Source: Nitrospirota bacterium
GTDB taxonomy: Bacteria > Nitrospirota > Nitrospiria > Nitrospirales > Nitrospiraceae
NCBI GenBank assembly: GCA_963701855.1
Contig: CAVPBK010000006.1
Coordinates: 352,001 to 416,000 of the forward strand
Length of the DNA: 64,000 bases
Reading direction: 5' to 3'
Below are positions 8,627 to 10,874 of this stretch, piece after piece. The stretch's first letter is position 1; every line of letters begins with the position of its first letter. The notes below the pieces were generated by a model. That model was not told the DNA's origin. It saw only the letters and a list, made by a program, of their open reading frames with translations, and did no database searches. Position numbers and translations under genes: made by a program.

Positions 8627-8724
8627 CGTCCTGGCTGCCTGTGGAACTCGGCGTGTCTTCCCTCCGATTCCGGACACACTTGCTTTCCTCGCATTCTGCC
8701 CACAGTGACCTTGTATCTTGCGCC

Positions 8725-8890
8725 CAAGGCGACAAGGATACAGCTTATCATCAACCCGGGCATGATAGACCGACGTGACCGAGGTCTTCAAAGACCGTGG
8801 GGCAGCGAGGGTCGTCATGCCCTTCTACGGAACGAGCCCGAACAGTTGCGTGGGCCATTGAGCCCGTATCATGCAAGGCCGGGCCACCAA
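8725..8890 (+). ncRNA. IS110 bridge RNA (predicted; ends approximate)
   Basis: Two stem-enclosed loops. Target loop: GTGACC (8775-8780) and GGGGCAG (8799-8805) around hairpin GGTCT-TCAA-AGACC. Donor loop: ACAGTTGC (8842-8849) and ATGCAAG (8871-8877) inside a GCCCG/CGGGC stem. Confidence 0.85.
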
Positions 8891-8900
8891 GGAGGACGTG

Positions 8901-9848
8901 ATGACGAGTACTCAGGTCTTTGTCGGTATTGATATCTCCAAGGCGCAGTTGGACCTCGCCCTCCGACCGGAGGGGCAGTTCTCCGCTCCCAACAACGAGG
9001 CCGGATTTGCTCAGGTGCTCGAACGTCTGAACGCCGTGCACCCCACGCTGGTGGTGTTGGAAGCCACCGGCGGGGTGGAGAGTCCGCTCACGGCGGTATT
9101 GGCCGCCGCCGGGGTGCCGGTCGTCGTGGTCAATCCGCGACAGGTGCGCGACTTCGCCAAAGCCACCGGGCGGCTCGCCAAAACCGATGCGTTGGACGCC
9201 CAGACGTTGGCGCACTTCGCCGAGGTCATGCGACCGGAGCCGCGACCCCTGCCGGATGAGCAGACCCAGGCACTGGCGGCGATCCTGACGCGTCGCCGGC
9301 AACTCGTCGAGATGCTGACGGCGGAGAAGAACCGCCTGGGGATGGCTGGCAAGCCGGTACGCAAGAGCCTGCGCACCCACATTGCCTGGCTCGAGCGGGA
9401 ATTGAGCCACACGGACCGCGGCTTGGCCCAGGCGATTCGGGAGAGTCCCGTGTGGCGTGAGAAGGAGGCGCTCTTGCGGAGCGCACCCGGGGTGGGGCCC
9501 GTGGTGACGACGACGTTGCTGGCGACGCTGCCGGAACTTGGCACGTTGCCCGGCAAACAGATTGCCGCGCTGGTGGGGGTGGCCCCACTGAATCGTGACA
9601 GCGGGACATTGCGCGGGAAGCGCACGGTCTGGGGCGGCCGGGCGCAGATCCGGGCCGTGCTCTATATGGCCGCGCTCGTGGCGGCGCGCTTCAATCCTGT
9701 CATACGTGCGTTCTACCAACGCCTGCGCGCCGCGGGCAAGACGAAGAAGGTGGGACTGACCGCTTGTATGCGGAAGCTGCTGATCATTCTGAATGCGATG
9801 CTGAAACATCGGACCCCATGGCGCACAGAACTGGTTCAGTGTGCTTGA
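8901..9848 (+). CDS. IS110-family DEDD recombinase/transposase
   Basis: GIDISK, LEATG, KTDALDA, PGVG and RDSG (catalytic Ser) motifs intact; AAGGAGG RBS. Confidence 0.95.
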
Positions 9849-9865
9849 CAACCAAGACAGTTGCT
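9845..9865 (+). promoter_or_regulatory. -35 half (TTGACA) of the IS110 circle-junction promoter
   Basis: On circularisation: TTGACA (9845-9850), 17 bp, TATCTT (8714-8719). Confidence 0.75.
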
Positions 9866-10874
9866 GCCCCCTATAAACAGGCCGGATCTGGAGTCAAGAT
9901 TTCGACCGGTGGTCGGCTCCATAATTTTGTACCATTGCTAGGGAGCGTTTCCCGCCGTGATGCGGGGCTCACAGCGCTGATGCTCCGCGTGGGCCCTAGC
10001 GAATTCCTCGGGTGTGCGAGCCTGGAGCGCCTGGTGAGGCCGACTCCCGTTCTCCTCACGCCGCCAGGCCTCGATCCGGTCGTGAGCCTCCCGCAGTGAC
10101 TCGAACCCGTGTGCATGCAGGCCCTCCCGTCGCAACGTCGCATGGCACGATTCCACATGCGCATGGTCCGTCGGCGTGCCTGGTCTAGAGCAGTCGATGG
10201 AGACCGTGTTGTGAGAGGCCCAGCGGTCCATTCGCTGACTCCTGAACTCACTCCCGTTGTCACAGAAGCGCCTCCTCGGCGTGCCTCGATGGATGTTGCG
10301 CCGAGTCAACACCGCCACGACGTGCGCGCCGCGAAGACGCTGGCCCACCTCAATGGCCACACCCTCGCGCGTATACACAGCGCTGCCGGTGCGGGCGCGA
10401 AATCGGCGCCCCTCGACCAGTGGATCCGCCACACCGTCTCGTAGCCACGCGTCCTGCGGTCTCGTTACCGTCGGCCGGTGCACTCGGGGCACCACCGATT
10501 TTCGCCGCCGGGGGCTCCGGCGACGCAGCCTCAGGCCTTCTTCTCGGGAGAGACGAGACCCGAGCTTCTTGCCCACAGCCCCCCGTCCCGATTGAGGCGC
10601 CCCCGAATGTTTCGATACCCGTACCGGACCCGCGTCTGGGTCAGCTCCCTGCGCCGCGGCCGGAGTGCGGGGCGGGGATCACGCTGACTCCGATAGTCGT
10701 AGGGGGCCCTCGCACCGCGGACGGTTCGGCAGGCGCGCCGCTCACGCACCGCATACGCGGGGCACAGAGACGTCCCCACACTCCGCGTCCGCGAGGGCCG
10801 TAGACTTGTTTTGTGAGGACGTCCTGCAGCCTGACTTTGTCCAACGACAAGTCCGCCACCACGCACTTCAGCAA

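Follow-up and report, generated by a model that had tools for sequence, protein, structure and literature searches.

What places an insertion sequence (IS) of the IS110 group, to the base, inside the terminal inverted repeat (IR) of another transposon? The question is raised by a locus in a stretch of 64,000 nucleotides, hereafter the window, from a Nitrospirota bacterium of the family Nitrospiraceae (assembly GCA_963701855.1, contig CAVPBK010000006.1, positions 352,001 to 416,000 of the forward strand), in which an IS110-group element of 1154 base pairs (bp) splits the end of an IS3-family element. A preliminary description of this DNA had proposed that the element encodes a bridge RNA programmed against that end. 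We conclude that this is very probably so, and that the element is of the IS621/ISCro4 type with a bridge RNA programmed to the tip of IS407-type inverted repeats. The flanks of its copies, the covariation of its guide sequences with those flanks and the conserved structure of its non-coding end carry this conclusion, while RNA-guided catalysis is attributed to it by homology with IS621, ISCro4 and ISEc21.

Anatomy of the element and its recombinase

A CT dinucleotide core flanks the element on each side (8710-8711 on the left, 9864-9865 on the right). The flanking sequence closes with ...CACAGTGAC on the left and opens with GCCCCCTATAAACAGG on the right; excising 8712-9865 restores TGACCTGCCCCCTATAAACAGG. 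The features of the locus, numbered by their position in the window and each with the basis of its assignment, are the following.

8706..8711, plus strand: outer 6 bp of the IS407-type inverted-repeat tip (TGAC and the left core CT), detached by the insertion; same junction at five of five left ends
8712..9865, plus strand: IS110-group insertion sequence, 1154 bp including one core copy; junction reading, copies and profiles
8712..8757, plus strand: 5' leader of the non-coding end, where a hairpin is predicted; fold
8714..8719, plus strand: TATCTT, a -10-like hexamer, half of a putative circle-only promoter; direct reading
8759..8821, plus strand: target-binding loop module, outer stem 8759-8770/8811-8821, inner hairpin 8783-8786/8793-8796; fold and covariation
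8775..8780, plus strand: left target guide GTGACC, which repeats the left target GTGAC and the first base of the core; in relatives it changes with the left flank
8799..8805, plus strand: right target guide GGGGCAG, reverse-complementary to CTGCCCC (core plus right target); varies with the right flank in relatives
8836..8884, plus strand: donor-binding loop module, outer stem 8836-8840/8880-8884, inner stem 8852-8855/8862-8865; fold and covariation
8842..8849, plus strand: left donor guide ACAGTTGC, equal to the right end 9857-9863 plus the core C; direct reading and relatives
8871..8877, plus strand: right donor guide ATGCAAG, able to pair, with one G:T wobble, with CTTGTAT (the core and left end, 8710-8716); direct reading
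8901..9848, plus strand: recombinase gene, 315 amino acids; PF01548, PF02371, NF033542 and the ISCro4/IS621 chains
9845..9850, plus strand: TTGACA, a -35-like hexamer that overlaps the recombinase stop codon; conserved in relatives L104-L106
9857..9865, plus strand: right donor end ACAGTTG and the right core CT; direct reading and relatives
9866..9909, plus strand: the inner portion that remains of the interrupted IS3-type repeat, GCCCCCTATAAACAGGCCGGATCTGGAG...; direct reading and copies
9910..10872, minus strand: 5'-truncated IS3-family element; rve and rve_3 domains above the Pfam cut-offs

The element lacks terminal inverted repeats and has a long non-coding region upstream of its gene, as is characteristic of the IS110 group: its left (5') non-coding end measures 189 nucleotides (nt), its right one 15 nt plus the core. 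The long open reading frame (ORF) that runs to 9848 has two candidate starts, 8871 and 8901, of which the first is an in-frame ATG within the donor guide. The ATG at 8901 is favoured because AAGGAGG stands at 8889-8895. The encoded recombinase matches PF01548 (DEDD_Tnp_IS110; E 1.4e-28, 100 bits, cut-off 29) and, in its C-terminal part, PF02371 (Transposase_20; E 3e-19, 69.6 bits, cut-off 21.3), and it scores 233.3 bits with the NCBIfam model NF033542, "IS110 family RNA-guided transposase" (cut-off 140). It also matches the protein chains of ISCro4 (E 1.7e-43) and IS621 (E 4.7e-40), and its GIDISK, LEATG, KTDALDA and SG motifs, together with its acidic motifs, align with ISCro4. In this alignment the SG dipeptide holds what we take to be the catalytic serine of the Transposase_20 domain.

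The two hexamers TTGACA and TATCTT come to lie 17 nt apart when the ends of the element join through one CT. No promoter was predicted on the plus strand of the integrated form, and a sigma-70-type promoter, with transcription from it, would arise only in the excised circle. The principle of a promoter rebuilt across the circle junction is stated for IS110-family elements in two earlier reports (PMC11208160, PMC11187229). Altogether, the window element is apparently a functional IS110-group insertion sequence of the IS621/ISCro4 type.

Insertion at the tip of IS407-type inverted repeats

The rebuilt target reads TGAC-CT-GCCCC. Within the IS3 remnant beside it an rve ORF spans 9938-10576, and the remnant shares 97.6% identity across 964 bp with a longer copy located on another contig, C5, of the same genome assembly (15 contigs, 4.30 Mb). 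Since its orfB ends 72 bp from the tip, the insertion in the window lies in the right-hand inverted repeat; the remnant scores 119 bits with NF033516, under the cut-off of 160, because this IS3 copy is truncated. The rebuilt end TGACCTGCCCCCT is identical to the IR consensus of IS407A, whose ends are printed as TGACCTGCCCCCT and AGGGGGCAGGTCA (PMC2877748, Table 2), and its 12-bp tip TGACCTGCCCCC recurs in the IR ends printed for ISPa32, TGACCTGCCCCC... (PMC7378034). The IS3 elements of this genome are different family members from IS407A and ISPa32, and the repeats diverge from one another past the 12-bp tip.

Four full copies of the element, 99-100% identical, are present in the genome. All four follow (G/A)TGAC-CT on the left and are followed by CT-GCCCCCT and then by IS3-type IR sequence, and a fifth, truncated left end on contig C9 follows ATGAC-CT. 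The copy on contig C12 has as its right flank a solo repeat of the right-hand IR type of the window's IS3. The full copy on C9 lies within a unit of about 110 bp made of two inverted IS3-type repeats, around which no direct repeats of 3-4 bp were found by eye, and the copy on C13 lies within a solo left-hand repeat that retains the orfA ribosome-binding site. The C13 copy is 1156 bp long, against 1154 bp, and its gene has gained a single base at each of two places. In another species of the genus there is an internally deleted copy, 95% identical and with the same guides, that lies in CTGAC-CT-GCCCCC followed by an IS3-type repeat, and a deleted derivative of the element occurs in species G007 and in sequencing run X15. 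The preliminary description had taken the target to be the end of IS3-type elements, and both the flanks of the copies and the identity of the 12-bp tip with the IS407A consensus bear this out. It had also named copies in unrelated targets as the observation that would speak against it; what we found is TGAC-CT beside all four full copies and the truncated one, and likewise in the sister species and in many metagenomic copies.

The exact target 11-mer occurs 11 further times in the genome, compared with two occurrences of a reversed-pattern control. Only 0.5 kb from the window's IS110 copy there is a second, apparently intact IS3-family element (about 6995-8203, minus strand; orfA 7855-8169, orfB 7025-8041). 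Its left IR tip, read from 8203 downwards, is TGACCTGCCCGG and its right IR tip TGACCAGCCGGG; these are a one-mismatch and a core-less version of the target, and both are unoccupied.

Two further observations concern the same genome and the 5' leader. The longer IS3 copy on C5 ends, at about 85950-86010, with ...CAGGGGGCAG and then CGGTTACAAGGGGC; the final four bases, GTCA, are absent from its IR tip. On the other strand this junction reads CCCCTTGTAACCG-CT-GCCCCC and includes CTTGTA, with which the IS110 left end begins; it could be the footprint of an IS110-mediated rearrangement, or chance. At position 8736 the window copy has G, while T is found in the C9 and C13 copies and in runs X1, X5 and X15; the T allele extends a small hairpin of the leader, ATGATA...TATCAT.

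Guide sequences change together with the flanks

Every guide string that the preliminary description located in the 5' non-coding end is present where it was placed. The reverse complement of the right donor guide, CTTGCAT, has one difference from CTTGTAT, which would be accommodated as a G:T wobble, and the GCAAG of this guide is near-invariant among 54 relatives.

In an alignment of 26 elements (the window copy, three sister copies and 22 relatives), the bases of the left guide change along with the bases left of the core, and those of the right guide along with the reverse complement of the core and right flank. The targets of relatives include, written as left-core-right, GGGGC-CT-GTCCC, GTAGC-CT-GTCCC, GGGTC-CT-GTTGC, TTCCC-CT-CGCCC and CCCAC-CT-CACTC. 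A register-free comparison, in which 110 element instances were reduced to 76 distinct target classes, gave a mean summed longest match between guides and flanks of 11.5 for an element's own flanks against 8.6 for the flanks of other elements; none of 10,000 permutations did as well, in a count that treats related elements as independent and includes three probably mis-called boundaries, though the range of targets it spans is large. The matches between guides and flanks exceed chance. The nearest relatives (77-85% amino-acid identity) have other targets: their guides differ at two to three positions and their flanks differ correspondingly, so that the window element and these relatives represent natural retargeting through a few point changes.

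Several other elements illustrate the range of targets. The closest differently programmed relatives (L025, L026, L027, L024, L031 and L104) sit in (A/G)GAAAAGTAGC-CT-GTCCC(C)TTTTC, and insertion falls in the loop that a short inverted repeat (GAAAAG...CTTTTC) encloses; unlike the IS3 tip, this target looks like a repetitive extragenic palindromic (REP) element or a terminator. Among L035, L038, L039, L044, L049 and L050, several insert at two positions of one repeat (...GGGTACGCCTCCGGT...CTCGCCTGCGGCC...), and L038 has an intact copy of the neighbouring target just downstream; the repeat looks like another multi-copy target, served by two differently programmed elements. The genome studied here also contains two more diverged IS110-group elements, at C5:333553-334623 and C10:7163-8254 (66% and 60% amino-acid identity), each with guides of its own; their targets are AAGAC-CT-GTCTC and GTTTC-CT-AAACC.

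A conserved two-module fold of the non-coding end

Folded as a single sequence, 8712-8900 forms two modules of stem, internal loop and stem (-76.9 kcal/mol, z = -3.6), and all four guide strings fall on the unpaired sides of these modules. Relatives for a comparative analysis came from species-representative genomes (604 candidate stretches, of which 563 were confirmed and the best 80 kept), complemented by relatives from the same genus and from metagenomes. Among 69 distinct non-coding regions, 54 entered the structure alignment; the other 15 were dropped as near-duplicates or for a size hinting at an insertion or a mis-called boundary. RNAalifold found 18 pairs in these 54 relatives, with compensatory changes in 14. 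Once the outer stem of the second module had been added, the resulting structure of 23 pairs had standard pairs in 97.2% of 1179 cells, compared with 30.5-45.7% when the 3' partners were slid by one to three columns. Two-sided changes occur in 16 of the 23 pairs, compensatory changes affect all 10 pairs of the target-module outer stem, and none of 500 shuffles attained any of five measures. A search of Rfam 15 yielded no family on the plus strand. The bridge-RNA layout of the IS621 type claimed in the preliminary description is sustained by the order of the guides, which is that of Durrant et al. (PMC11208160), by the covariation of structure and of guides with flanks, and by the recombinase matches to ISCro4 and IS621.

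The only Rfam match of this region is to RF02234 (sX15) on the minus strand, 8746-8904, which with 30.1 bits against a gathering score of 55 is sub-threshold. Similar full-length matches below threshold (30-38 bits), on the strand opposite to the bridge RNA, appear in three of five scanned sequences: the window, L025 (1352-1497, minus strand) and L190 (477-631, minus strand). The aligned consensus of sX15, a small RNA of Xanthomonadaceae, includes the reverse complement of the donor-loop motif. It may represent bridge-RNA regions of Xanthomonas IS110 elements, either as their antisense strand or through assignment to the wrong strand; a Xanthomonas plasmid match with a truncated IS110 gene (H1) gave no sX15 match.

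Relatives in metagenomes and other genomes

Sequence near-identical to the element occurs in metagenomes of soil, rhizosphere and mine, with 14 runs containing more than 0.8 of the sampled words. In run X7, contigs leave the element exactly at its ends and continue into 11 and 30 bases that in the genome studied here border, on contig C12, an empty TGACCTGCCCCC. The two sites form one filled and empty pair, an insertion polymorphism between strains. Since no IS3 is recognisable near the matching 12-mer occupied in X7, the specificity concerns the sequence rather than IS3 itself. A metagenome search with a pattern of both guides and the hairpin (7 Ns) gave no matches.

A scan for the right end joined to CTGCCCCC found at least 116 metagenomic stretches, of which 80 were fetched. 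Most of these elements belong to a second lineage, 1166 bp long, with the guides ATTGACCT and GGGGCAG and with 53-58% protein identity to the window element. Among 24 complete metagenomic elements, 20 have ...TGAC at the left, and in three of the four exceptions the guide tracks the altered flank. IS3-type ORFs (HTH_Tnp_1, HTH_21, rve, rve_3) directly adjoin the junction in 17 of the 61 loci whose right flank extends over 250 nt or more, on the orfA side in eight and on the orfB side in nine; therefore both ends of IS3 elements are targeted. The orfB at one of these loci, L137, scores 235 bits with NF033516. Beyond the searched GCCCCC, 36 of 73 right flanks are IR-like (above the 95th percentile of shuffles), where about four would be expected by chance.

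In plasmid and Escherichia coli collections no near relative of the window element or of the 1166-bp lineage was found, the best matches being about 67-70% identical over part of the gene. We also placed the recombinases on a quick maximum-likelihood tree of 57 rows, from which 13 near-duplicates and L024 had been left out. The tip-targeting label requires two changes on this tree, which suggests that two lineages may have acquired the target independently. Their convergence is not claimed here, because the approximately unbiased (AU) test does not reject a tree uniting the four tip-targeting rows (p = 0.33).

A proposed mechanism and its alternatives

From these data we propose the following sequence of events. 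The DEDD/serine recombinase would excise the element as a circle, and the joining of the right to the left end would create a sigma-70-type promoter (TTGACA, 17 nt, TATCTT) from which the 5' non-coding end would be transcribed as a bridge RNA. One internal loop of this RNA is predicted to pair with the element's own joined ends, ACAGTTG-CT-TGTAT, and the other with both strands of the target, GTGAC-CT-GCCCC, upon which the recombinase would exchange strands at the CT core. On this view the programmed target is the near-invariant outermost 12 bp, TGACCTGCCCCC, of the inverted repeats of IS3-family elements of the IS407 group, at either end; insertion cuts the repeat's terminal 6 bp off from its inner part.

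Several observations weigh against a programmed preference for IS3 tips or against the RNA-guided step. At the X7/C12 site no recognisable IS3 gene lies nearby and the likeness to an inverted repeat is doubtful. The GCCCCC to the right of the metagenomic loci is uninformative, because the scan itself required CTGCCCCC after the right end. Of the 73 right flanks, roughly half show no likeness to these repeats; some of that half come from relatives whose left guide is different. Among 401 sampled genomes of the phylum the junction was present in four, and the three others stand outside IS3-like flanks. As regards the 11 additional exact 11-mers in the genome, about five are IS3-IR-like yet unoccupied and five to six unoccupied ones are not IS3-like; four insertions are too few to tell statistically whether IS3 context is preferred over the bare 11-mer. 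The left target guide covers one of the two core bases, pairing with the first core base C only because the next guide base is G and not T. In addition, Rfam 15 gave no plus-strand match for the RNA at E <= 1, the sole contig from an RNA library (run X15) is a deleted copy that is uninformative on expression, and the permutation test has the dependence and boundary problems noted with it.

How do other explanations fare against the same evidence? That the matches between guides and flanks are coincidental, with the site recognised by the protein alone, is scarcely credible: guides and flanks covary across the 76 target classes, and relatives at 77-85% amino-acid identity with few guide-base changes sit in correspondingly different flanks. 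It is quite improbable, too, that the copies are inactive fossils whose guide/flank matches record past activity only. The lengthened C13 copy with its two single-base gene insertions, the deleted derivative in G007 and run X15 and the truncated left end on C9 would fit such decay, but the window copy has an intact ORF, guides and ends, the four copies are 99-100% identical, and the insertion is polymorphic between strains. A generic target of 11-12 bases, of which IS3 tips would merely be the commonest genomic instance and to which the IS3 link would be incidental, is in our view doubtful. The X7 insertion at a matching 12-mer without recognisable IS3 genes, the short span of the guides (about 11-12 bases only) and the exact non-IS3 sites of the genome speak for it. 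The excess of exact sites over the reversed control (11 versus 2) nevertheless consists of IS3-type repeats, and IR-type sites hold all four full copies of this genome and the copy of the sister species, and make up about half of the 73 right flanks from metagenomes; moreover, a generic target differs from the programmed IR-tip target more in emphasis than in mechanism.

A further question is whether IS3 elements are harmed, and whether that harm is what selection has favoured. Through the insertion the terminal 6 bp come to lie 1.15 kb away from the remaining repeat. IS3-family transposition needs the terminal bases to be contiguous with the adjacent part that binds the transposase, so that an interrupted IS3 end should be dead until the IS110 element excises. 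In this one genome, the position of all four full copies in remnants or solo repeats and the lack of unoccupied exact tips at loci with IS3-like ORFs are in keeping with this. The preliminary description had spoken of a hyperparasite that destroys the repeat of its host IS: the physical split 6 bp from the tip is there, while the loss of IS3 mobility is something we infer from it. An antagonistic relationship, with the IS110 element as a true hyperparasite or as a silencer beneficial to the host, tip targeting selected for disabling IS3 and IS3 tips evolving to escape, appears unlikely to us. It would account for the split at the same 6 bp in every insertion and for the same guides in two distant lineages (53-58% amino-acid identity). 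All four full copies lie in truncated IS3s, solo repeats or a miniature IR pair and none in an intact IS3, and an unoccupied exact tip was seen in none of 29 loci with IS3-like ORFs, where tips such as TGACCGGCCCCC, TGACCTTCCCCC or TGACCTGCCCGG lose the CT core or the guide match. Tip variation among IS3 subgroups is, however, expected without any pressure from IS110 elements, the sample is one genome in which decayed targets may just be older, and a single origin of the two lineages is not rejected by the AU test. Still less probable, in our judgement, is the stronger form of an arms race, in which IS110 elements have been reprogrammed repeatedly and independently onto 12 bp of IS407-type tips that the IS3 transposase cannot easily change, and would serve as reversible, RNA-guided inactivators of IS3. 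The most likely evolutionary reason for the choice of target is that IS3 tips are abundant, dispensable and mobile between genomes, and damage to IS3 would then be a by-product.

Relation to known systems

The closest mechanistic counterparts are IS621 and ISCro4 (PMC11208160; PDB 8wt6, 9t56), which share with the window element the same two protein domains, the long 5' non-coding end and the CT core. Durrant et al. (2024; PMC11208160) describe there left and right target guides (LTG/RTG) and left and right donor guides (LDG/RDG), each including core bases. The likeness extends to a two-loop RNA with LTG/RTG in the first loop and LDG/RDG in the second, in the same order, and to a promoter rebuilt across the circle junction. 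The right target guide comprises seven bases in the window element compared with the four-base RTG of IS621, while some orthologues are described with longer ones; and where IS621 typically targets REP elements (PMC11208160), the window element targets the tip of an IS3-family repeat. The exact target 11-mer has no occurrence in the searchable, partly incomplete supplements of that report.

With regard to the target, ISEc21 is the nearest conceptual precedent. This member of the IS110 family has a guide RNA and a non-coding region that lies upstream, and its natural target is a conserved sequence inside IS3-family elements (Siddiquee et al., 2024; PMC11187229). Because of ISEc21, an IS110-family element aimed at IS3-family elements is already in print. 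ISEc21 targets the DDE codons of IS3-family elements, whereas the window element targets the non-coding terminal repeat, at both ends of the IS; the exact target 11-mer has no occurrence in the searchable supplements of Siddiquee et al. (PMC11187229).

Targeting of another transposon's terminal repeat has a precedent of its own. Partridge and Hall reportedly described in 2003 that IS4321 and IS5075, members of the IS1111 group, are directed at the terminal inverted repeats found in the Tn21 family. They resemble the window element in that an element with a DEDD transposase is specific for the terminal repeat of another transposon, and differ from it in the target, Tn3/Tn21 there and IS3/IS407 here, as well as in the position of the non-coding region, which is upstream in the window element. 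The latter departs from the IS1111 group, defined by sub-terminal inverted repeats and a long non-coding region downstream of the gene, and resembles that group solely in having an inverted repeat as its target. The preliminary description had cited the IS4321/IS5075 precedent for IR targeting; it had overlooked ISEc21, with which the targeting of IS3-family elements was already on record. In open-access full text we found no description of an IS110-family element in an IS3-family inverted repeat.

Implications

Altogether, the mechanism is that of IS621 and ISCro4, so that mechanistic knowledge is left unchanged by this finding, and only the class of target, the IR tip, appears to be undescribed. 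We speculate that, if an arms race did exist, two transposon families would be engaged in it through a guide RNA, and its pressure would explain why intact IS3 tip variants of this genome lose the CT core or the guide match. The locus represents a complete natural set of recombinase, bridge RNA, donor and target, and together with its relatives offers a clean example of retargeting by point mutation. It also provides a rule for annotation, in that TGACCT and GCCCCC, split apart on the two sides of an IS110 gene, mark both elements and account for some IS3 copies that seem to have no end. Targeting of the IS3 tip would be the third documented route by which DEDD or guide-RNA elements reach other mobile elements, after the Tn21 inverted repeats used by IS4321/IS5075 and the IS3 DDE codons used by ISEc21.

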